From a bacterium (GTDB lineage Bacteria; UBA8248), in contig OZ242260.1 of the NCBI GenBank assembly GCA_965207065.1, positions 1,792,001 to 1,856,000 on the forward strand: 64,000 bases of DNA, in the 5' to 3' direction. The notes beneath the pieces were generated by a model. It saw only the letters and a program-made list of their open reading frames with translations. It did no database searches and was not told the DNA's origin. Below, piece after piece: positions 2,862 to 55,490 of this stretch (positions are counted from its first letter, which is position 1; each line of letters begins with the position of its first letter). Both the position numbers and the translations under genes were made by a program.

Positions 2862-4025
2862 ATGGACGAGGGGAGCCGCCGCGGCCAGCAGTGGGTGACC
2901 GAGGAGTTCTATAAGGTTCACGACGTCTACGCCTTCCGCTCGGTGATGTACGTGGAATGGGGCTTCCGGCCCGCCGACGTGAGGAGAACCACCGAGCGCA
3001 TCAAGACGCCAGGCTCCGTGCCCAAGGAGTGGGCGCGCACCGCCGCCCAGGAAGAAGCGCTCGCGAGAGAAGCCGAAGCCGCCGGCCACCGCGAATCGGC
3101 GGCGGAGTTCTACCACCGCGCAGCGCTTTATTACGGCCCCGCCTGCGGCGTCATCCACAAGAACACACCGCAGAAGCTCGAACTTTACGGAAAGATGATC
3201 GCCTGCTACGAGAAGTTCATCGAGCTTTTCGACGAGGCCCCCGTGGAGCGCGTGGAGATTCCCTTCGAGAACGGAAAGACGATTCCGGGCATTTTGCAGA
3301 CCGTGCCGGGGGTGGAGCGCGCGCCCTGCGTCATCATTGTACCGGGGATGGACACCATCAAGGAGTTTCTCCCCAATCCCTATCACAACCATTTCAGGCG
3401 GCGCGGCCTCGCCACGCTCAGCATCGACGGCCCCGGCCAGGGGGAGAGCAACACGCGCGAGACCTGGGTGACGCTGGACAACTTCGAGCGCGCGGGCTCG
3501 GCCGCCATCGACTATCTCGAATCACGCCCCGAGGTGGACGCCGAGCGAATTGGCCTCTACGGCTGGAGCATGGGCAGCTACTGGGGGCCGCGCGTGGCGG
3601 CGCACGATGCGCGCTTAAAGGCCTGCGTGGGCGCGATGGGCGTCTACCTCCAGAAGGACTCCATCTTCAAGAGCGGAAAGCCCGCCTACCGCGCGAACTA
3701 CAAGTACATGTCCGACACCTATGATGAGGACGCCTTCGACGCCATGGCCGGGCAGATGACGCTCGAGGGCGTCGCGGGTGACATCAAGTGTCCCACCCTG
3801 CTCGCGATGGGCGAGTTCGACGAGCTTTGTCCCTTGGAGGACGCCGAGCGGCTCTTCGACCTCCTGGGCGGCCCCAGGGAGCTTTGGGTGTATGAGAACG
3901 AAACCCACACGATGGGCGGACGCCTGCCCGATTTCTACCTCATGGTGGCCGACTGGCTCCGCGACGCCATAGACGGCAAGTTCAGTCCCGACCACGCCGT
4001 GCGCCGCTTCTTCGAGGCGCGCTGA
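2862..4025 (+). CDS. Alpha/beta hydrolase (FrsA/DUF1100, 2,6-dihydroxypseudooxynicotine hydrolase-like)
   Basis: PGMDTIKE, DGPGQGES, nucleophile elbow GWSMG, D and H candidates (EFDELC, ETH); start placed at ATG 7 nt after the upstream stop. Confidence 0.8.
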   Translation: MDEGSRRGQQWVTEEFYKVHDVYAFRSVMYVEWGFRPADVRRTTERIKTPGSVPKEWARTAAQEEALAREAEAAGHRESAAEFYHRAALYYGPACGVIHKNTPQKLELYGKMIACYEKFIELFDEAPVERVEIPFENGKTIPGILQTVPGVERAPCVIIVPGMDTIKEFLPNPYHNHFRRRGLATLSIDGPGQGESNTRETWVTLDNFERAGSAAIDYLESRPEVDAERIGLYGWSMGSYWGPRVAAHDARLKACVGAMGVYLQKDSIFKSGKPAYRANYKYMSDTYDEDAFDAMAGQMTLEGVAGDIKCPTLLAMGEFDELCPLEDAERLFDLLGGPRELWVYENETHTMGGRLPDFYLMVADWLRDAIDGKFSPDHAVRRFFEAR

Positions 4026-10186: not shown

Positions 10187-11836
10187 ATGGCTAAGTCCAA
10201 GGATAACGGCGCGAAAAAAGAGCGCCCCGTCCGGGAGGCGGCCTACAACTCGGGCAAGCCCGTGCCCGTGGTCTACGGGCCGGACGCGCCGGATGAGGGA
10301 TATCGGGAAAAGCTCGGCGCGCCGGGAGAATACCCCTACACCCGGGGCATCTACCCCACGATGTACCGGGGCTCGCTCTGGACGATGCGCCAGTACGCGG
10401 GTTTTTCCACCTCGGCGGACACCAACGCGCGGTTCCATTTTCTGCTCGGAAACGGCCAGACGGGCCTCTCGATGGCCTACGATCTGCCCACCCAGCTCGG
10501 CCTCGACTCGGACGACGAGACCGCACAGGACGACGTGGGACGCCTGGGCGTCGCCGTGGACACCGCTCAGGACATGGCGGACGTTTTCGAGGGGATACCG
10601 CTCGATAAGGTGAGTGTCTCGCACACCATCAATTCGACCGCCGCCATCATCCAGGCGTTCTGGCTCATCGCCGCAGAGCGCCAGGGGGTCGCGCTCGATA
10701 AGCTGCGCGGCACCTTCCAGAACGACATGCTCAAGGAGTACATCGGCCGGGGCACTTGGATATTCCCCCCGAGACCCTCCATGCGCCTGGTGGCCGACAT
10801 CATCGAATACAACGCGAAGCACTGCCCGCGCGTGAACGCCGTCAGCGTCTCGGCCACCCACATCGCCGAGACGGGCGCCACCCTCGCGCAGGACGTCGCC
10901 TTCCCCATCCTGAACGCTCTGGCCTATATACGAGAGCTCACCTCGCGCGGCCTCCACGTGGATGACTTCGTGCCCACGATGTCGTTTCACCTCTCGGTCG
11001 GCGGCGGCGTGGGGCCGTTCAATCTGCTTGAATCTATCGGCAAGCTGCGCGCGGCGCGGCGCATCTGGGCGCGCACGATGAAGGAGAAATACGGCGCGAA
11101 AAACCCGAAAACCATGCAGCTCAAGTTCTCGACCGGCAACTGCGGCAGCCGCATGGCGGCGCGCGAGCCGCTCAACAACATCGTGCGCCAGACGCTCTAC
11201 ACCCTGGCCGCTGTCATGGGGGGCACACGCTCAGTGAACATGGCGTGTTTCGACGAGGCTTTTGAGATTCCCTCGGACGAGTCCATCCGCACGGCGCTTC
11301 GGATTCAGCAGGTCATCGCCCATGAGAGCGGCGTGGCCGACACGGTGGATCCGCTGGCGGGGGGCTATGCGGTGGAAGCCGTGACGGATCAGGTGGAAGA
11401 GGAGATTCACGCCATCGTAGACGATTACGAATCACGCGGCGGAATCGTCCCCTTCATCGAGAGCGGCGAGATCCAGAGACTGCTCGCGCGGCAGGCTTAT
11501 GAGCATCAGCGAAAGATCGCCGATGGCGAGCAGGTGTGGGTGGGTGTGAACAAGTTCACCTCGGAAGAGGAAGACCGCATGAGCGCGGGTGAGGGCCTCT
11601 ACGAGGCGGATGATTCGGCGCTCGAAAAACAAAAAGAGCGCCTCGCGCGCGTGAAGGCCGCCCGCGATGAAGGCGAGGTGGCTGCGCAACTCGAAAAGCT
11701 GGCCAGGGCGTGTGAATCGAAAGAAAATCTGGTGCCTTATCTCATGGAGTCCGCTCGCGCGCGCCTCACCGTGGGGGAGATGACCGGGGTGATGCGCGGC
11801 GCCTTCGGGGCCTACGTGGAGCCGTCGGTCGTTTGA
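10187..11836 (+). CDS. B12-dependent acyl-CoA mutase, large (substrate-binding) subunit, methylmalonyl-CoA mutase family
   Basis: GEYPYTRG, WTMRQYAGF, GLSMAYDLPTQLGLDSD, QNDMLKE, DEA, DPLAGG, VGVNKF. Confidence 0.92.
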   Translation: MAKSKDNGAKKERPVREAAYNSGKPVPVVYGPDAPDEGYREKLGAPGEYPYTRGIYPTMYRGSLWTMRQYAGFSTSADTNARFHFLLGNGQTGLSMAYDLPTQLGLDSDDETAQDDVGRLGVAVDTAQDMADVFEGIPLDKVSVSHTINSTAAIIQAFWLIAAERQGVALDKLRGTFQNDMLKEYIGRGTWIFPPRPSMRLVADIIEYNAKHCPRVNAVSVSATHIAETGATLAQDVAFPILNALAYIRELTSRGLHVDDFVPTMSFHLSVGGGVGPFNLLESIGKLRAARRIWARTMKEKYGAKNPKTMQLKFSTGNCGSRMAAREPLNNIVRQTLYTLAAVMGGTRSVNMACFDEAFEIPSDESIRTALRIQQVIAHESGVADTVDPLAGGYAVEAVTDQVEEEIHAIVDDYESRGGIVPFIESGEIQRLLARQAYEHQRKIADGEQVWVGVNKFTSEEEDRMSAGEGLYEADDSALEKQKERLARVKAARDEGEVAAQLEKLARACESKENLVPYLMESARARLTVGEMTGVMRGAFGAYVEPSVV

Positions 11837-32617: not shown

Positions 32618-34909
32618 GTGAAGCGAAAACCGGACTCGATACCCGACGAGAAAAAGATACTCCGCCTGATCGCCGAAGAGGACAGGCCGATGGCCGTGCG
32701 CGAACTCGTGCGCCTGCTCGATGTTCCCTCCGCCGCGCGCCCTGCGCTCAGAAAGCGCCTGCGCGCCATGGCGGAAGAGGGTGCGCTCGTCAGGGTTCGC
32801 GGCCGCTATTCGACGCCGGGTTCCCTCTCCATCTACCAGGGAACCTTTCGGGGCCATAGGCTGGGGTTTGGGTTCGTCGTTCCGAACCAGGCGCCGGGTG
32901 AGGAAAAACCACTCGATATCATGATCAAGAAAACCCGCACACGGGGCGCAATGGACGGCGATACGGTCTCCGCCAGGGTGGAGAAAGTACAGCCCGATGG
33001 AAGGTGTGAGGGCAGCGTGCTCGACGTAATCGAACGCGCGCACGAAACCCTGGTGGGCAGGCTCTGCGTGGAGGGGCGAAGCGCGTGGGTGGAACCCCAG
33101 GGAGAGCGTATACCGCACCTCGTGGTCCTGGGCGCCGGTGAGCGGGGAGGAGCGAGGCGCGGCGAGTGGGTGGAGGTGGAGATCACCCGCTATCCCACGC
33201 AGAAAGAGCCCGCCAAAGGGCGTATCCTGAGGTCGTTCGGCTACCCGGAAGACCCCGCCGCCGAGGGACGGATGGTGCTCGCCAAGCACGGGATACGCGA
33301 GGATTTCCCCAAAAAGGTGCTGGATGAGGAAAAGAGGATATCCCCGCCGGGGGAGGATACTCCCTTTCCGGAGGGTGTGGAGGATTTGAGGGATCTGTGC
33401 GCGTTCACTATCGATCCATTCGACGCGCGCGATCGCGACGACGCGGTTTCGATAGAAAAACTCAAGTTCGGCGGCTGCCGCCTGGGTGTGCACATCGCCG
33501 ACGTGGGCCATTACGTGAAGGGAGGCGGCGCGATTGACAAAGAAGCCCTCGAGCGCGGGGTGAGCGTCTATCTTCCGGATCGGGCTGTGCCCATGCTGCC
33601 GCCCCGCCTGACGGGCGAGGTGTGCTCGTTGCGGGAGGGGGCCGTTCGCCGGACCCTGAGCGTCTTCATCGATTTCGACCGATACGGGAATCAATCGGGG
33701 ATGCGCCTTACCTTCGCGCGTATTCGCTCGCGCGCCTCTTTGACCTATCGCGGCACAGCGGCCGTTCTGGAGGGCGGTGAGATTCCCCAGAAAGACGAGG
33801 TCGAAAGCGCACGCGCGCTCGAAGCGCCGCTCAGGCAGCTCTCGGCCCTTGCCGACAAGCTTCACGTGGAGCGCATGCGCCGGGGGAGTCTCGATTTCGA
33901 CCTGCCCGAAGCCCAGGTGCTGCTCGATGAGGAGGGGATGCCGACGGGGATTGCGCGCGCGCCGAGAACATCCGCGCACCGGCTCATCGAGGAGTGCATG
34001 CTGGCGGCGAACCGGGCGGTAGCGGAATTTCTCGCCGATGCGGGCGGGGCTTCGGTCTACCGCGTCCATGAGTCGCCGTCGGAGGATAATCTCCAGGGTT
34101 TAAGGGCGATCCTCTCCAAATTGGGCCTGAATGCGCCGCGTCTGGAGGAACTCAAGCGGCCGGGCGGGCTTCAGGAGGTATTCGACGCTGTGGAGGGCTC
34201 GGACGTGGAGCGCTACGTGAATCTCGCCGCGCTCAGGAGCATGAAGCTCGCGCGCTATGAGGCGGCGCCCGCCCTTCACTTCGGCCTGGGCTTCGAGCGC
34301 TACACGCATTTCACCTCCCCCATCCGCCGGTACGCGGACCTGTGCGTTCACCGAAGGCTCCAGAAGCTCATGCGCGGTGACAAGAGAAAGCCCCAGGCGA
34401 AGCCCCTCGCCGCCCTTTGCGGCGATATTTCCGAGCGGGACCGGGTGGCCGAGGCCGCCTCGCGCGAGATGGCCGATTTCATGAAGGCGCTGTTCATGCG
34501 CGATAAGGTTGGCGAACGCTTTCGGGGACACGTCTCGGGCGTCGCGAATTTCGGGATTTTCGTGGAACTCGAAGATATTTTCGTAGAAGGCATGGTACCG
34601 CTCGAATTCATGACGGATGACTACTACGCCTATATTCCAGAGGAACACGCCGTACTGGGCCGAAGGTCCGGCCGAAGATTCCGCCTGGGCGATCCCGTTA
34701 CCGTGCGGGTGGAGAGCGTGGAACTGGCCTCGCGGCGCGTCACGTTCCAGCTAATGGCGGGCGGGACGAGAGAGTTGGTCGGCGATGCGGCGCAGTCGCG
34801 CCGCGCGGCGATATCCACCGAGCGTCGTCGCTCAGGGAAGAAGAAACCCTCGAGCCCACGGCGCAAGAAGAAGGGAAAAGCGGCGATTAAGCGGGGGAGA
34901 CGCCGCTGA
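32618..34909 (+). CDS. rnr: Ribonuclease R
   Basis: N-terminal HTH, GFGFV, TIDPFDARDRDDA, HFTSPIRRYADL, S1 domain, basic tail; upstream of smpB. Confidence 0.95.
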   Translation: MKRKPDSIPDEKKILRLIAEEDRPMAVRELVRLLDVPSAARPALRKRLRAMAEEGALVRVRGRYSTPGSLSIYQGTFRGHRLGFGFVVPNQAPGEEKPLDIMIKKTRTRGAMDGDTVSARVEKVQPDGRCEGSVLDVIERAHETLVGRLCVEGRSAWVEPQGERIPHLVVLGAGERGGARRGEWVEVEITRYPTQKEPAKGRILRSFGYPEDPAAEGRMVLAKHGIREDFPKKVLDEEKRISPPGEDTPFPEGVEDLRDLCAFTIDPFDARDRDDAVSIEKLKFGGCRLGVHIADVGHYVKGGGAIDKEALERGVSVYLPDRAVPMLPPRLTGEVCSLREGAVRRTLSVFIDFDRYGNQSGMRLTFARIRSRASLTYRGTAAVLEGGEIPQKDEVESARALEAPLRQLSALADKLHVERMRRGSLDFDLPEAQVLLDEEGMPTGIARAPRTSAHRLIEECMLAANRAVAEFLADAGGASVYRVHESPSEDNLQGLRAILSKLGLNAPRLEELKRPGGLQEVFDAVEGSDVERYVNLAALRSMKLARYEAAPALHFGLGFERYTHFTSPIRRYADLCVHRRLQKLMRGDKRKPQAKPLAALCGDISERDRVAEAASREMADFMKALFMRDKVGERFRGHVSGVANFGIFVELEDIFVEGMVPLEFMTDDYYAYIPEEHAVLGRRSGRRFRLGDPVTVRVESVELASRRVTFQLMAGGTRELVGDAAQSRRAAISTERRRSGKKKPSSPRRKKKGKAAIKRGRRR

Positions 34910-34920
34910 GTTTCTGAAGC

Positions 34921-35159
34921 GGGGTTGTTGGATAAGTCTCCTTTTCGAGGATAGAGGAGACGCCCCGCTTGACTGGAAAACGAACCCCCGCTCCCCCCCT
35001 TGTCAGGGGGGTATAAAAAGGCGATGCGCCCCCGCCGGGCGGAGGGGGTTTTGCTTTTTCTTGTCCCCCTGACAAGGGGGGGGTAGGGGGGGTGACTTTA
35101 TGGGGTTTCCCTTTCAAGGAGGTTGACTTTACCCACTCAAGGGCTTTTTCCACGGCCCC
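34921..35159. repeat. Degenerate MITE/REP composite between rnr and smpB
   Basis: Ends GGGGTTGTTGGATAAG / CTTTTTCCACGGCCCC; internal inverted pair CCCCCCTTGTCAGGGGGG ... CCCCCTGACAAGGGGGGG. Confidence 0.6.
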
Positions 35160-35317
35160 AAGCGGCAATGCTTCAGATTTGGTTCACTTACGGTTCCCCT
35201 ATGAAATTTCCCTGGTGGCGAAAAATCCCCTAAAGAGCTATATTGTTTCTCGATGACAAGGGAACTTGGGGAGCGATGCGCTCCTTTTTCTTTTTCCTGA
35301 GATTCTTGAGGTTTGTG

Positions 35318-35782
35318 ATGGCGGGCGGCATAAAAATCGTTGCCGAGAACAGGCGCGCCCGCGCCGATTATGCGATCGATGAGACTTATGAGGCGGGCCT
35401 CGTGCTCACGGGCACGGAGGTGAAGGCGCTCCGCGAGGGCCGCGCGAACTTAAAGGAGAGCTTCGGCGACATCATCGACGGCGAGGCATGGCTGGTCGAT
35501 TGCCACATCAGCCCCTACGGGCACGGCAACATCAACAACCACGAGCCCACGCGCAGGCGAAAGCTGCTGCTCCACAAGCGCGAGATAGGCCGCCTCATCG
35601 GACGCGTGAACGAACGGGGCATGACGCTCGTGCCGATGAAGATGTATTTCGCCCGGGGCCGCGCGAAGGTGGAGATTGGCGTCGGCAAGGGCAAAAAGTT
35701 CCATGACCGCCGGGAAGAGCTGAAAAAACGCGACGCGAACCGCGAGATTGAGCGCGCGCTGAGGGAGAGGAACCGGGGATGA
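35318..35782 (+). CDS. smpB: SsrA-binding protein SmpB
   Basis: NRRAR, EAGLVLTGTEVKALR, HISPY, RKLLLHKREI, GKGKKFHDRR. Confidence 0.97.
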   Translation: MAGGIKIVAENRRARADYAIDETYEAGLVLTGTEVKALREGRANLKESFGDIIDGEAWLVDCHISPYGHGNINNHEPTRRRKLLLHKREIGRLIGRVNERGMTLVPMKMYFARGRAKVEIGVGKGKKFHDRREELKKRDANREIERALRERNRG

Positions 35783-35985
35783 TTCACATTTTCAAGGACT
35801 ACACGATGCGCTGGTGGCAGGTGAGTCTGCTGAAAATCTCGTTGGCCGCGTTCGGCCTGGCCATTGGCGCCACCTGGCCGGGAGCCTTCGAGGGCTGGCT
35901 GCTGTGGATATGGCTGGTATTCCTGCTCCCCGCCGCGTATCTGAGCTACGTCTTCTATCCTGAAATGTGGAAGAGACGTAAATAG
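35779..35985 (+). CDS. Small two-helix membrane protein of unknown function
   Basis: 68 aa, ATGA overlap with the smpB stop, two hydrophobic stretches, basic C-terminus. Confidence 0.6.
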   Translation: MIHIFKDYTMRWWQVSLLKISLAAFGLAIGATWPGAFEGWLLWIWLVFLLPAAYLSYVFYPEMWKRRK

Positions 35986-36046
35986 CGTATTCGAAACGGG
36001 TCCGGGGCCATGATCGCCGCTCCGGAGCCTTGGCTTCATTTCTATT

Positions 36047-36407
36047 GGGGGCGATCTGGCTTCGACGGGAGGATTTGAAGTCTGAGCTGCGCGCCGGGGA
36101 CGCCACTTGGCCCCGTTATCAATGTGGCAAAATCACACCAGCCGACAACGAGCTGGCTCTCGCTGCTTAAACGCTAGCGAGCGTTCCCCCTCGCCTCGTC
36201 CGCGGGGGAGGAGTGGAGCGTCATGATGCGGACTAGCCGACCCAGGTTTCGGTCCGGAGCCTGCTAGGCGAAATCGAATCGGACTAGCCCGGAGGATGGC
36301 CCGCCGGTGGGCTTGAGACCGGGCGAAACCCTTTCCACCGGCTACGCGCGTAGACGCTCACGACGGAAGCCTTGCGGACGCGGGTTCGATTCCCGCCGCC
36401 TCCACCA
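36047..36407 (+). ncRNA. ssrA: tmRNA; tag peptide (A)ADNELALAA at 36141-36170
   Basis: 5' GGGGGCG...TTCGAC, 3' T-arm GCGGGTTCGATTCCCGC and acceptor end CGCCTCCACCA, internal tag ORF ending LAA-TAA; adjacent to smpB. Confidence 0.96.
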
Positions 36408-36456
36408 GAATACAATACTTGCGGCGCCATGCGCCGCCGATCGAACAGGAGTTCAA

Positions 36457-37272
36457 ATGACCGAAAAAAGCACGATTCAGAACATGGCTCTGTTTTGTGA
36501 TTTCGAAAACATCGCCCTTGGCGTGCGCGACGCCAAATACTCGGATTTTGATATTCAAAGAGTGCTGGAGCGCTTATTGCTCAGGGGCAGCATTGTCGTC
36601 AAGAAAGCATATTGCAACTGGGCGCGCTACAAGGAATTCAAGGCTCCCATGCACGAGGCGGCCTTCGAGTTGATCGAAATACCGCACGTCCGCATGTCCG
36701 GCAAGAACTCGGCCGACATTCGCATGGTCGTCGACGCATTGGACCTCTGCTATACCAAGTCGCACGTCGATACTTTCGTGATTATCAGCGGCGATTCCGA
36801 TTTTTCGCCATTGGTCAGCAAGCTGCGCGAGAATAACAAGGTAGTTGTCGGCGTCGGCGTGAAGAACTCGACCTCCGACTTGCTGACCTCGAACTGCGAC
36901 GAGTTCATCTATTACGACGACTTGATGCGCGAATCCGATAAACAGGGAAAAGCCAAACGGAAGCGGCCGGCCGCCCGCGCCGGAAGAAAGAAAGTCGTCG
37001 ACGGCGAAGAGGAAAAACGGCTGGAAGGGCTCAATCTGGTCCTGGAGACGACCGAGGACTTGTCCCGGGAGCGGGGCGAGGAAGAAAAGGTCTGGGGATC
37101 GATGGTGAAGCAGGCCCTGAAACGCCGCAAGCCGGGATTCAGCGAATCCTATCACGGATACAAAACCTTCAAACACTTGCTCGAAGACGCGAAAGCCCGC
37201 GGGATGCTAAATCTGGAGTTCGACAAAAAGTCCGGCGGATACATCGTGAAGAGCGCGCAACTCGATGAATAG
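36457..37272 (+). CDS. NYN-domain (LabA/DUF88, PIN-like) ribonuclease with C-terminal OST-HTH/LOTUS domain
   Basis: FCDFEN, GKNSADIRMVVDA, ISGDSDFSPL, CDEFIYYDD; C-terminal PGFSESYHGYKTFKHLLE; CAGGAG RBS. Confidence 0.9.
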   Translation: MTEKSTIQNMALFCDFENIALGVRDAKYSDFDIQRVLERLLLRGSIVVKKAYCNWARYKEFKAPMHEAAFELIEIPHVRMSGKNSADIRMVVDALDLCYTKSHVDTFVIISGDSDFSPLVSKLRENNKVVVGVGVKNSTSDLLTSNCDEFIYYDDLMRESDKQGKAKRKRPAARAGRKKVVDGEEEKRLEGLNLVLETTEDLSRERGEEEKVWGSMVKQALKRRKPGFSESYHGYKTFKHLLEDAKARGMLNLEFDKKSGGYIVKSAQLDE

Positions 37273-37284
37273 GCGCGCTTAGAA

Positions 37285-37337
37285 GCTCACGACGGAAGCC
37301 TTGCGGATGCGGGTTCGGATTCCCGCCGCCTCCACCA
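37285..37337 (+). repeat. Duplicated tmRNA 3' end (att-like direct repeat of 36356-36407)
   Basis: GCTCACGACGGAAGCCTTGCGGATGCGGGTTCGGATTCCCGCCGCCTCCACCA: one substitution and one 1-nt insertion relative to ssrA. Confidence 0.95.
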
Positions 37338-37464
37338 TTTTTAAATGAGAATGCGGCTAGCCTGTGAATACGGGTTTCATTGAATTGTTCTGATTCAAAT
37401 TGGTTCATTCTGTGGATTCTTGTTATATTTTCTGAAGTCAGATTTCAGCGAGTCGGGCGTACTC

Positions 37465-37677
37465 ATGACGCCGAGCGAAGTCATTTTCGAGCTTACCGAA
37501 GCAGTAGAAGGCGGCTATGACGCCCGGGCCTTGGGCTACGGAATTTTCACCCAGGGAGAGGACTGGGATGATCTGAAGTCAATGGTCCGGGATGCGGTGC
37601 TTTGCCATTTCGGTGAAGAAGACGTGCCCAAAGTAGCCAGGTTGCATCTTGTCAGGGACGAAGTTATCGCAGTATGA
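37465..37677 (+). CDS. HicB-like antitoxin (short type)
   Basis: EVIFELTEAVEGGYDARALG..IFTQGEDWDDLKSMVRDAVLCHF; ATGA overlap with a HicA-like start. Confidence 0.75.
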   Translation: MTPSEVIFELTEAVEGGYDARALGYGIFTQGEDWDDLKSMVRDAVLCHFGEEDVPKVARLHLVRDEVIAV

Positions 37678-37713
37678 AATTGCCGAGTGCTCTCTCTGGC
37701 GACGACTTGATTC
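37674..37713 (+). pseudogene. Truncated HicA-like toxin remnant
   Basis: MKLPSALSGDDLI resembles HicA N-termini (MKLP..LSG..LI); similarity stops where the convergent sulfatase ends. Confidence 0.55.
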
Positions 37714-39228
37714 TCAACCCTCCTCCTCATCCGCATCGCTCTTCGTCTCCGGGAACCACTCCAGAAAACCTTCTTCGGTGGCGGGCGGAAACGGCCACTG
37801 GTCCCCGCGCATGGCGGACAGCGTACGGTCGGGGCCGGGCTGGAACCGCCGGGCCGGCTCGCCGACGAGTTTCCCGTTATCCAGCCATTTCTCGTCGCTT
37901 CCGTACATCTGCCCCTCCAGCGTCTCGGTCAACCGGGATAGCACGTCGGCGTAGTCGGGGTCCGAGAATAGATCGACGAGTTCGTTCGGGTCTTCCTGCA
38001 AGTCGAATAGCTGGAAGAAGTGCCCGACCGGGTAGTAGATGAGCTTGTGGCGTCCGTCGTGGATCATGCGGGAGCAATGCGCGTCCTCGCCCGCCTCGCC
38101 GAAGAGGAATTCCCGCTTCTTATCACCCACCATCGAGAGGCCTTCCACCGTCTCGGGTACCTCGATGCCGCACAGGTCGAGCAGGGTGGGCATGACGTCC
38201 TGTAGGCAGACGAGACGGTTGTCCACCCGGCCCGAGCCCACACGCGCATCGTCCGGCAGACCCGCCAGGATCATCGGGATTCCGGCGGAATACTCGTAGA
38301 AGACGCGCTTGGCCCACATGCCGTGGTTGCCCAGCATGTCGCCGTGGTCCGAGGTGAAGCAGATGATGGTGTCGTTGGTGAGGCTTTCCTCGCGCAGGGT
38401 GCCGATGATGATGCGTATCTGGTGTTCGATATGGGTGCACAGGGCGTAGAACGCCCGGCGCGCGTCGATAATCGCCCCTTCACCGTAAAGGTCGCCGCGC
38501 GTCTGGGTGGCCTGCGCGTTGTAGGGGAGCTTTTCGCGGTCGCGCGCCCATTCGCCCATGAACGGCTCGTCGATGGGTATGTCGCGGTAGATGTCCAGGT
38601 AGGCCTGGAGCGGCACGAGCGGCGGGTGCGGATGGCGGTAGGAGAGATACCAGAAAGCCGGCCGCATCGGGTCGCGCCGCTTGATGGTGCGCGCCATCAT
38701 GCGGGTGGTCCAGTTCGTGGGGTGCGTCGCCTCGGGCAGATGCCATGCCCGGTAGGTATACTGGTTGTTCCCCATGCCGTGATCGAACTGGCGGCCCGTG
38801 TAGCCGATGTCGCCCAGGTAGATGTCGTAATCATCGGCGACGTTGTAAATCGAGCGGCCCTCGTCGTCTAGGATGACGTCGTCGAAACCGATGCGATCGC
38901 GCTGGGGATAGACGTGAATCTTGCCGACCGCGTAGGCCTGATAGCCCGCGTCGCGGAAGGTCTGAGCCATCGTCGGCAAGTGGTCGGGCATCAGCATCGT
39001 CGGGCTGAAAACGCGGTCGCCGTGGGCGCGTGCGCTCGCGCCGGTCATCAGCGTACGCCTCGCCGGTATGCAGAACGGGTGTTCGGAATAGGCGTTCGTG
39101 AAGCGCACGCCGTTCTTGCAGAAGGTGTCGAGCGTCGGCGTCAGGATGCAGGGATGGCCCGCCGCCCCAAGCAGGGGCGAGGACCAGTGGTCGGTATTGA
39201 TCAGGAGGACGTTCGGTCTCGTTTGCAT
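37714..39228 (-). CDS. Formylglycine-dependent sulfatase family protein
   Basis: RPNVLLINTDH, CIPAR (CxPxR) plus LMTG, GKIH, PHPPL, SDHGDMLG, DPNE. Confidence 0.9.
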   Translation of the reverse strand: MQTRPNVLLINTDHWSSPLLGAAGHPCILTPTLDTFCKNGVRFTNAYSEHPFCIPARRTLMTGASARAHGDRVFSPTMLMPDHLPTMAQTFRDAGYQAYAVGKIHVYPQRDRIGFDDVILDDEGRSIYNVADDYDIYLGDIGYTGRQFDHGMGNNQYTYRAWHLPEATHPTNWTTRMMARTIKRRDPMRPAFWYLSYRHPHPPLVPLQAYLDIYRDIPIDEPFMGEWARDREKLPYNAQATQTRGDLYGEGAIIDARRAFYALCTHIEHQIRIIIGTLREESLTNDTIICFTSDHGDMLGNHGMWAKRVFYEYSAGIPMILAGLPDDARVGSGRVDNRLVCLQDVMPTLLDLCGIEVPETVEGLSMVGDKKREFLFGEAGEDAHCSRMIHDGRHKLIYYPVGHFFQLFDLQEDPNELVDLFSDPDYADVLSRLTETLEGQMYGSDEKWLDNGKLVGEPARRFQPGPDRTLSAMRGDQWPFPPATEEGFLEWFPETKSDADEEEG

Positions 39229-40641: not shown

Positions 40642-42147
40642 TCATTCATCACCGGCCTGCGGGGATCGGCGGCGGGCGCCCCAGACGACGACACCTGCGG
40701 CCAGCAATATAAAGACGAGCGAGATGGGCCGGCGGACGAACAGAGACAGGTCGCCGTCTCCCATGATAAGCGATTGTCCGAGGGAAGACTCGAACGCCCG
40801 CCCCAGAATGAAGGTGATGATGAGGGGGGCGACCGGGAAATCGAATTTTCTCAGAAAATAGCCCACCACTCCGAAGACCAGCATCACCTTCACGTCGAAG
40901 AAGCTGTTGTTCAGGGCGTATGTCCCCACCACACAGAACGCCGCCACGACGGGGAAGACCGCCTTCTTCGGGAACCGCGCGATCAGGGCCACATAGCGCA
41001 GGCTGAAGAACCCGAGGATCAGCATAAGGACGTTGCAGAGCAGCATGGCGATCAGGATGCTGTAGACGATCGCGCCGTGATCCTCGAAGAGGCGGGGGCC
41101 CGGCCGGAGCCCCTGCACCATGAATGCGGCGAAGAGCACCGCGGTTACGATGTCGCCCGGTATGCCGAAACTGAGCAGGGGGATGAGGCTCGAACCGTTG
41201 ACCGCGTTGTTGCCGGTTTCGGCGGCGGCCACTCCCTCCAGCGATCCTTTCCCGAACTGCTCGGGCTGCTTTGACCTCCGGAACGCCAGGCCGTAGGAGA
41301 CGAACGCGGATACCACCTGTCCCAGGCCCGGAATCGCGCCGATGATCGTGCCGACCACCGCCGAGCGGGAGATCGTCCGGCCGCAGCTCTTGAACTCCTC
41401 CATGGTCAGGGGTTCGTTGCCCTCGGCGCGCCACGCGGTCATGCGCTTCTCGTCTTCGGCCTTGCGCTCCTCTCGGGTCTTCTCTCCGTAGAGGAGGATC
41501 TCCGAGAGCGCAAAGATCCCGATCAGCATCGCGATGAACGAGATTCCCCCGGTCAGGTCCACCGAGCCGAAGGTGAAGCGCCGCACCCCGATCAGGGGGT
41601 CGAGACCGACCGAGCTCAGAAACAGCCCGAGAGCGGCGGACATCAGCCCACGAATCACCGAACGGCCCGTGACGCAGCTGATGATGGCGAAGCTGAAGAC
41701 GAAGATAGCGAAATATTCCGGGGGGCCCACCAGGATGGCGACCGCCGCGATGGCGCCCGCGATGAAGATGGTGACGAGATCGCTGAAGGTGTCCCCGATG
41801 ACGGAGGAGTAGAGAGCCATCTCGAGGGCCTTTCTCGCCTTACCCTGCTGGGCGAGGGGGTAGCCGTCCAGTACGGTGGCCGCGGCTGCGCCCGTGCCCG
41901 GCGTGTTGATCAGGATCGCGGGAATCGAACCGCCGAATATCGCCCCCTTCGTGATGGCCAGGAGGAAGGGAATCCCCAGAACGGGTTCGACGAAAAACGA
42001 GATCGGCAGCAGAACCGCCACCGCCATGGCGGCCGTGAGGCCGGGCAGGCCGCCCACCACGATCCCCATCGACATTCCGATCACTAGGACGGCGAGTACG
42101 TCGAAGCGCAGGCACAGGAACAGGCCTTGCGCCAGCTGCGCCCACAT
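40642..42147 (-). CDS. Tripartite tricarboxylate transporter permease TctA
   Basis: GGLPGL, GGSIPAILINTPG, DGYPLAQQG, EGVAAAETGNNA, GIPG. Confidence 0.92.
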   Translation of the reverse strand: MWAQLAQGLFLCLRFDVLAVLVIGMSMGIVVGGLPGLTAAMAVAVLLPISFFVEPVLGIPFLLAITKGAIFGGSIPAILINTPGTGAAAATVLDGYPLAQQGKARKALEMALYSSVIGDTFSDLVTIFIAGAIAAVAILVGPPEYFAIFVFSFAIISCVTGRSVIRGLMSAALGLFLSSVGLDPLIGVRRFTFGSVDLTGGISFIAMLIGIFALSEILLYGEKTREERKAEDEKRMTAWRAEGNEPLTMEEFKSCGRTISRSAVVGTIIGAIPGLGQVVSAFVSYGLAFRRSKQPEQFGKGSLEGVAAAETGNNAVNGSSLIPLLSFGIPGDIVTAVLFAAFMVQGLRPGPRLFEDHGAIVYSILIAMLLCNVLMLILGFFSLRYVALIARFPKKAVFPVVAAFCVVGTYALNNSFFDVKVMLVFGVVGYFLRKFDFPVAPLIITFILGRAFESSLGQSLIMGDGDLSLFVRRPISLVFILLAAGVVVWGARRRSPQAGDE

Positions 42148-55160: not shown

Positions 55161-55189
55161 TGCCCCCACCTTGTAGAACACTAACCAAC

Positions 55190-55396
55190 CACTCCCCCCT
55201 TGAGGGTCGGCCTTTCCTCCTCGGGAAGGCCGACGAGGAAGCCGAGCGCTTTGTGCGAAGGCTGATGCGGTGGGGGGTAAAATGCATTTTATCACCATTC
55301 CGAATTATACCCCCCACCGATTCGGTTTCGGGTTTTCACCCTCACCTCATCGTCGGTCTACCCGAGGAGGATAGACCGACCCTCAAGGGGGGAGTG
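55190..55396. repeat. Second, inverted copy of the 1705-1867 palindromic unit carrying two extra 27-nt hairpins
   Basis: Aligns by eye to the reverse complement of 1705-1867; similarity extends to 55169 (matching 1888). Confidence 0.85.
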
Positions 55397-55490
55397 ATTC
55401 TTCCTCTTTTATCAGTCGCCAATGACCTTCAAGGGGGGAATGATTGCAATGTCTGCGTTTTTTCGAAACGCCCCGAGATGGAAGTGAATC

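Follow-up and report, generated by a model that had tools for sequence, protein, structure and literature searches.

Islands integrated at ssrA, the gene for transfer-messenger RNA (tmRNA), carry a described signature, the ssrA 3' end repeated in direct orientation at their far boundary (PMC3146451, PMC12595487, in the text available to us). In Dehalococcoides, 15 ssrA islands that are devoid of an integration module, and that hold 38 rdhA genes along with others, have been proposed to be cis-mobilizable elements, or CIMEs (PMC3146451). Here, we report the analysis of an ssrA locus in a bacterium of the UBA8248 lineage (GenBank assembly GCA_965207065.1, contig OZ242260.1, positions 1,792,001 to 1,856,000 of the forward strand; this stretch of 64,000 nucleotides is referred to as the window), where a single gene, encoding a predicted ribonuclease (RNase) with an NYN domain, is flanked on one side by the intact ssrA 3' terminus and on the other by its displaced duplicate. 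Probably, though by no means certainly, this islet is the fixed, CIME-like relic of an ssrA-targeted integrative element that was cut down to a left attachment site (attL), one cargo gene and a right attachment site (attR). Read in this way, it is a known kind of remnant in an unusually small form, and no new kind of mobile element.

The islet and its borders comprise the following features, in window coordinates.

36047-36407, plus strand: intact tmRNA gene (ssrA), encoding the tag ADNELALAA (ARAGORN); Rfam family RF00023
36345-36407, plus strand: first repeat copy (attL side), consisting of the 3' strand of the long helix, the T-arm and the acceptor 3' strand with the CCA of the functional tmRNA (repeat search, Rfam alignment)
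36408-36456, plus strand: leader of 49 nt, with a GC hairpin at 36421-36437 and the motif AGGAG at 36447-36451
36457-37272, plus strand: sole gene between the repeats, for a protein of 271 aa with an NYN (LK-nuclease/DUF88) domain, a linker and an OST-HTH/LOTUS-type domain (Pfam NYN)
37274-37337, plus strand: second repeat copy (attR side), the displaced tmRNA 3' fragment (sequence, repeat search, blastn-short/nhmmer)
37338-37355, plus strand: residual homology to the related genome L001, about 18 nt past the second copy, at which synteny ends

The match of ssrA to the Rfam model scores 170.5 bits and covers model positions 1-374 of 374, and both ARAGORN and Rfam detect one tmRNA gene in the window. 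The last 63 nt of ssrA recur in direct orientation as 64 nt at 37274-37337. The second copy has three substitutions, all within the first 44 positions, and an additional G in the T-loop; the two copies match at 60/63 positions, and the final 20 nt up to the CCA, which begin in the T-loop, are perfectly identical. The repeat ends exactly at the CCA of the tmRNA. A preliminary description of this locus recorded a 52-nt repeat (36356-36407 versus 37285-37337) with two differences; this is correct, and constitutes the inner part of the longer repeat, which reaches 11 nt further 5'. A probe of 28 nt taken from the tmRNA 3' end gave no chance match in 100 shuffles. Searches of the window with blastn-short and nhmmer returned no third copy of the tmRNA fragment, including none bounding the HicB-like remnant that is considered below. 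A 14-nt match on the minus strand, at 41918-41931 inside tctA, was taken as chance.

Beginning at 36408, the insert adjoins the 3' end of the full-length ssrA, and the 866 bp between the repeats contain only the leader and one open reading frame (ORF). The distances first reported for this ORF are confirmed by the sequence: it starts 49 nt past the tmRNA CCA, with the stop codon ending 1 nt short of the extended repeat, or 12 nt short of the 52-nt repeat. No integrase or transposase family was detected among the 62 window ORFs scanned (12 + 50), which were delineated with a greedy longest-ORF caller, such that a gene under a spurious antisense ORF could be missed. The original picture of a one-gene unit without an integrase, placed between an intact ssrA 3' end and its displaced copy, thus holds.

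Like the Dehalococcoides islands, which are located in a region of tandem, variable islands, the islet lies directly after ssrA, is bounded by a repeated copy of ssrA's 3' end, and has no integration module; furthermore, the insertion point given by the authors of that study falls in the T-loop, where the 20 identical nucleotides of the islet also begin (PMC3146451). In the same account, the Dehalococcoides islands hold several genes, are flanked by a 20-bp repeat and have serine-recombinase partners, whereas the islet is a one-gene, 866-bp unit with a 63-nt repeat and no partner in view. The CIMEs of the Streptococcus ICE (integrative and conjugative element) families, as presented in ICEberg 2.0 (PMC6323972), resemble the islet in having att-like sites on both sides and no genes for integration or transfer. 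However, CIME status in that sense implies att sites that are usable by the integrase of a related ICE or integrative and mobilizable element (IME); for the islet, no such element or activity is known, and the unit appears to be fixed. Tyrosine-integrase islands at tmRNA genes, such as the Pseudomonas I23/I44/I55 class and Vibrio pathogenicity island 1 (VPI-1), share with the islet the target in the tmRNA 3' end, the flanking direct repeats and a cargo unrelated to self-transfer, but, according to the available description (PMC12595487), they span tens of kb, with intY beside the tmRNA and alpA at the far end, both of which are missing from the islet.

The same arrangement is present in a second genome, a metagenome-assembled genome (MAG) of Nitrospinota (L001), with the order smpB, small ORF, ssrA (encoding the same tag), leader, NYN gene and repeat. 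L001 is colinear with the window over 35144-37355 at about 90.5% identity (blastn), and colinearity stops at L001 position 2426. Compared with the tmRNA genes, both second repeat copies have two derived states in common: position 6 of the repeat has changed from G to T, and the T-loop is enlarged by a single base, inserted at an identical place in the two genomes (a G in the window and a C in L001). The second copy in L001 reads CCATCA where CCACCA stands elsewhere, and within each genome the repeat copies differ at 4 positions. Between the two genomes, 1/63 positions differ in the tmRNA 3' end (first copy), 6/64 in the second repeat and 5/49 in the leader. At four-fold degenerate sites, the differences amount to 17/80 in smpB, 6/30 in the small ORF and 16/112 in the NYN gene, and two intergenic stretches differ at 13/60 and 20/97 positions; the four-fold divergence of the NYN gene is not significantly different from that of smpB and the small ORF (Fisher p = 0.22). 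Given the colinearity, the derived states common to both second copies and this host-like divergence, the islet predates the split of the window genome and L001. The colinearity of the unit in L001 at host-like divergence, together with the survey of related loci presented below, favours the alternative of a collapsed island, already raised in the preliminary description, over a cassette mobilised in trans.

The second genome also bears on the possibility that the duplication or the NYN junction was created by mis-assembly of metagenomic reads or by faulty binning. The related records are indeed MAGs, and the NYN gene of L001 contains a scaffold gap and unrelated filler. However, two independent assemblies share the junctions on both sides; the copies differ at several positions in each genome, with the derived states common to the second copies and differences that are peculiar to the L001 assembly; and the unit lies in an uninterrupted sequence of 64 kb and has normal genes on either side. 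We therefore consider an artefact very unlikely. The gap in question, at L001 1970-2034, consists of a run of N and about 55 nt unrelated to the window; it appears to be an assembly join rather than a biological insertion.

The NYN gene is functional and under purifying selection, as judged from the comparison with L001, in which codon positions 1 and 2 differ at 13/542 sites and position 3 at 39/271.

Under the scenario we favour, integration of the element would have given the tmRNA gene a new 3' end (attL), with the original 3' end being displaced to the far side (attR, 37274-37337). The recombination genes of the element would have been lost, or might never have been present, whereas the cargo, an RNase with NYN and OST-HTH domains, would have been retained by purifying selection and, being common to a second genome, would now be vertically inherited. 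An attL, a single cargo gene and an attR make up the arrangement known as a CIME or a decayed island. The cargo was probably acquired from a proteobacterium: the window NYN protein is 80-84% identical to proteobacterial copies, and in a FastTree phylogeny of 80 sequences (midpoint rooted; L001 omitted because of its N gap; support values not inspected) it groups with L002 and L003 (Proteobacteria, Alphaproteobacteria). The DNA past the second repeat may be a hot spot where insertion and rearrangement continue, given that synteny with L001 ends about 18 nt past the second copy and that the window then becomes AT-rich, with an ORF of low GC content at third codon positions (GC3). If this scenario is correct, the islet would be a very small, clean case of integration into a tmRNA gene delivering one useful gene that was kept by the host after the vehicle vanished. 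Flanked by att sites and devoid of an integrase, such remnants can be smaller than 1 kb and would be missed by island finders that are keyed to integrases.

Several observations weigh against this scenario. Both the integrase-mediated origin and the history of deletion are read from the architecture, and neither an integrase-bearing version of the element nor an ssrA site lacking it was seen. Composition by itself does not mark the NYN gene as foreign, its GC3 of 0.735 being only 1.4 standard deviations (SD) under the local mean (0.803 +/- 0.049, 25 genes). The arrangement was examined in a single related genome, L001. The second repeat, with 6/64 differences compared with 72/379 at four-fold and intergenic sites, shows weakly less divergence (Fisher p = 0.075), as would be given by constraint or gene conversion rather than by free decay; gene conversion by the functional copy would account for the lower value. 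The main oddity is the very tight packing, with a 49-nt leader that includes a ribosome-binding site and a stop codon 1 nt from the repeat, which calls either for fortunate deletion end points or for an element of small original size; both a deletion-reduced element and an originally small one fit these data.

The NYN domain of the protein (Pfam PF01936, E = 3.8e-36, residues 10-153) is a PIN-like nuclease domain, and by sequence the protein resembles VPA0982 (PDB 2qip, E = 1.6e-11) and the NYN domain of MARF1. The AlphaFold2 model has a mean predicted local distance difference test (pLDDT) score of 72, and a Foldseek search with the whole model, which returned the N-terminal domain only, again recovered 2qip (E = 1e-09) and the MARF1 NYN domain. 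In 33 orthologues, the acidic motifs FCDFEN, SADIR and SGDSDF are invariant, as are residues D15, D87, D93, D113 and D115 of the NYN domain, which we take to be catalytic. The NYN domain and the conserved C-terminal domain are connected by a Lys/Arg-rich linker of low model confidence. The C-terminal domain of the window protein itself matches OST-HTH at 15.1 bits (E = 0.021), under the Pfam cutoff of 23.8; in the family, PF12872 (OST-HTH) matches 15/33 aligned orthologues at E <= 0.01, with a best E of 1.7e-06, and residues 182-265 are modelled as helices followed by two strands. Bacterial OST-HTH domains are described in the same terms, as helices and then two strands (PMC2848206, in its available text). 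Accordingly, the initial assignment as an NYN-LOTUS protein stands in full for the NYN part, and for the OST-HTH part it holds at the level of the family as judged from these alignments, although not above the cutoff in the protein itself. Proteins combining an LK-nuclease (DUF88/NYN) domain with OST-HTH have been described by Anantharaman and Aravind (2010, PMC2848206), with the same domain architecture and, as here, encoded by a stand-alone gene; in this islet, the gene lies between tmRNA repeats, and that account of the family, as far as available, gives no link to tmRNA.

The suggestion that the RNase serves in defence found no positive support. The one PADLOC match, to the profile PDLC01154 'NYN' (E = 1.8e-07), is partial and at the level of the domain, with residues 60-159 of the protein aligned to positions 202-301 of the 310 in the profile; there are no defence partner genes at the window locus, and the orthologues sit among housekeeping genes. 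The most economical function for the protein, by analogy with the proposal made for the family (PMC2848206, available text), would be a stand-alone role in RNA degradation or RNA processing.

Homologues equal in length to the window NYN protein number more than 8,000, with 66-84% identity in Alpha-, Beta-, Gamma-, Zeta- and Deltaproteobacteria and in some other phyla, and 95-97% in a few contigs. We surveyed 80 related NYN loci (genes 63-84% identical, flanks of up to 10 kb). A tmRNA gene is near the NYN gene in only one of these, L001, and is missing from the other 79. When 81 sources (the 80 loci and the window) were considered for direct repeats of at least 14 nt across the NYN gene, with L027 dropped because its downstream flank is 71 nt long, such repeats were detected only in the window and L001 out of 80 sources tested. 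The flanks of the gene (70 nt upstream and 90 nt downstream) are unrelated among loci, save for small local families, and there is almost no synteny: the neighbouring ORFs fall into 552 clusters, only 12 of which have at least three members, the largest having 10. No integrase, transposase or phage family was detected by Pfam (E <= 1e-08) among 150 immediate-neighbour ORFs from 78 loci (150 of 152, two of L080 being left out; some ORFs from the greedy longest-ORF caller are spurious), and hence the same gene was not encountered within a large integrase-bearing island of relatives, an outcome that had been envisaged earlier. The neighbours are ordinary genes, coding for GroES, trigger factor, MutL, UvrD, aminoacyl-tRNA synthetases, thiolases and transporters, along with two toxin-antitoxin-like matches. 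The proteobacterial NYN genes are ordinary chromosomal genes, highly conserved and standing alone. The bacterial genes for LK-nuclease and OST-HTH proteins are described as having no conserved neighbourhoods (PMC2848206, available text), in agreement with this survey.

This survey bears on whether the islet might instead be an active minimal element, that is, a non-autonomous, cassette-like unit of about 0.93 kb that continues to move, either in trans through an integrase whose gene lies elsewhere or in cis through accretion with an adjacent island. The good preservation of both att-like repeats (the last 20 nt identical, 60/63 positions overall), the extreme compactness of the unit and the unusual similarity of the NYN protein across phyla would all fit such an element, and mobilisation in trans or in cis of integrase-less elements flanked by att sites is documented (PMC6323972 and PMC3146451, available text). 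However, the only other genome with the unit, L001, has it in the same place and at host-like divergence; the 79 other NYN loci have neither tmRNA nor flanking repeats; the NYN flanks are not conserved; no integrase was found among the 150 neighbour ORFs or the scanned window ORFs; and the NYN tree broadly tracks taxonomy. A unit that is still mobile is thus unlikely, and the earlier proposal of a cassette mobilised in trans is not upheld.

Other origins were considered and rejected. An integron gene cassette does not fit because the 3' boundary is a direct tmRNA copy and not an imperfect inverted-repeat attC, with no fold beyond that of shuffles, no integrase in the scanned ORFs and no conserved 3' flank at other NYN loci. 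In phages, the matches are distant and confined to the N-terminal domain (7 records, less than 36% identity), and the plasmid matches, at 60-65% identity, are mostly on replicons of 0.8-2 Mb. Two longer proteins (P0005 and P0014), considered as tmRNA read-through products, are internally duplicated chimeras and uninformative. A literature search on the NYN domain with tmRNA and on integrase-less tmRNA islets yielded no title addressing this arrangement. Among the surveyed loci, five have tRNA genes in the flanks, only one of them, L014, directly downstream: in this gammaproteobacterial locus (10819-10945), a tRNA-Leu(TAG) gene on the same strand lies 42 nt after the NYN stop codon, with no flanking repeat, which is probably coincidental.

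Upstream of the islet, ssrA is preceded by genes of trans-translation, with polA and a metallophosphoesterase gene (Pfam) located further upstream.

32618-34909, plus strand: RNase R gene (rnr; Pfam RNB, E = 8.7e-97)
35243-35782, plus strand: smpB (Pfam SmpB, E = 6.9e-61)
35779-35985, plus strand: ORF of 68 aa, hydrophobic, between smpB and ssrA; its start overlaps the smpB stop codon (ATGA), and it is kept in L001

The 68-aa ORF matches no Pfam family and is 88.4% identical to L001 at the DNA level, the changes being mostly in third positions. Over 32618-36407, three trans-translation partners, RNase R, SmpB and tmRNA, are thus grouped on one strand, and the NYN RNase gene directly follows them.

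The region between the CCA and the NYN start codon bears on how the gene is expressed. The leader hairpin has 7 bp and a 3-nt loop, with no U-tract (fold of -16.6 kcal/mol, z = -2.3), and is preserved as 6 bp in L001. A simple scan of 35700-37900 found no sigma-70-like promoter and also missed any ssrA promoter, which makes it uninformative. With only 49 nt, a hairpin devoid of a U-tract and a good ribosome-binding site between the CCA and the start codon, transcription of the NYN gene with or from the ssrA region, i.e. by read-through, is plausible. The NYN frame is also open in the 5' direction, across the leader and into the 3' region of the tmRNA gene, forming an ORF of 321 aa from a GTG at 36307 (36307-37272), and likewise in L001; gene callers could annotate an N-terminally extended NYN protein overlapping ssrA.

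These features would accommodate a co-opted RNA module, in which the displaced fragment is kept as the 3' end of a tmRNA-NYN read-through transcript, for example to serve its processing or stability or to supply a CCA, and the RNase has joined the rnr-smpB-ssrA ribosome-rescue cluster, a possibility compatible with the origin of the islet as a relic. In its favour are the reduced divergence of the second repeat relative to neutral-like sites (6/64 versus 72/379), the conserved leader hairpin, the purifying selection on the NYN gene, the position of that gene directly after those for RNase R, SmpB and tmRNA, and the 49 nt between CCA and start codon with no promoter-like match. However, the excess conservation is weak (p = 0.075), and conversion by the first copy is an equally possible cause. 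Taken by itself, the displaced fragment has no better fold than shuffled sequences (z = +1.1 in the window and +0.9 in L001), a result that lends no positive support to the second tRNA-like 3' end postulated in the preliminary description; the T-loop is enlarged in both genomes, and the CCACCA end is lost in L001. No linkage of the NYN family to tmRNA, smpB or rnr was found in the 79 other loci, and none is given in the available text of the family description (PMC2848206). We regard such a module as quite unlikely; adjacency alone is what links the NYN RNase to trans-translation. Nevertheless, the placement of a conserved RNase of no characterised function, with NYN and OST-HTH domains, behind RNase R, SmpB and tmRNA provides a testable hint as to its role.

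Returning to the relic and the possible hot spot at its distal side, the window beyond the second repeat contains the following features.

37338-37464: AT-rich spacer (GC 0.386)
37465-37677, plus strand: HicB-like ORF of 70 aa (GC3 0.592; ESM Atlas neighbours)
37674-37712, plus strand: overlapping ORF start, MKLPSALSGDDLI..., from the ORF list; a HicA-like start of about 13 codons in an ORF of 122 aa
37714-39228, minus strand: convergent sulfatase gene, followed by tctCAB (Pfam)

Identity to L001 is 14/22 over 37338-37360 and then 13/32; past the synteny break, L001 has different DNA, with an ORF that is chorismate-mutase-like by eye. The HicB-like ORF is absent from L001, and its GC3 is about 4 SD under the mean of 0.803 +/- 0.049 for 25 Pfam-supported genes. 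In the ESM Atlas, 30/30 matches of this 70-aa ORF are clusters labelled 'putative 2-oxoisovalerate dehydrogenase' (0.95), and the nearest Pfam-bearing clusters are DUF1902 and HicB; there is no Pfam, PHROG or PDB sequence match, the likeness to HicB coming from the ESM Atlas alone. By eye, we take MKLPSALSGDDLI... to resemble the N-terminus of a HicA toxin. The resemblance is lost where the convergent sulfatase gene ends, and neither the 29-aa piece nor the 122-aa ORF of the putative HicA has a Pfam match. This compositionally foreign segment, 37338-37712, is probably what is left of a second element that arrived more recently on the distal side of the displaced tmRNA fragment.

Two further repeats were observed. 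Just past the displaced tmRNA fragment of L001, a long, non-coding inverted repeat with GC-rich arms of about 25 nt occupies L001 2505-2630. An intergenic repeat of about 140-160 nt with internal hairpins, resembling repetitive extragenic palindromes or miniature inverted-repeat transposable elements (REP/MITE-like), is present in the window at 55169-55330, 55347-55399 (inverted) and 1749-1888 (inverted), and in L001 at 3108-3281, the copies being 75-89% identical.

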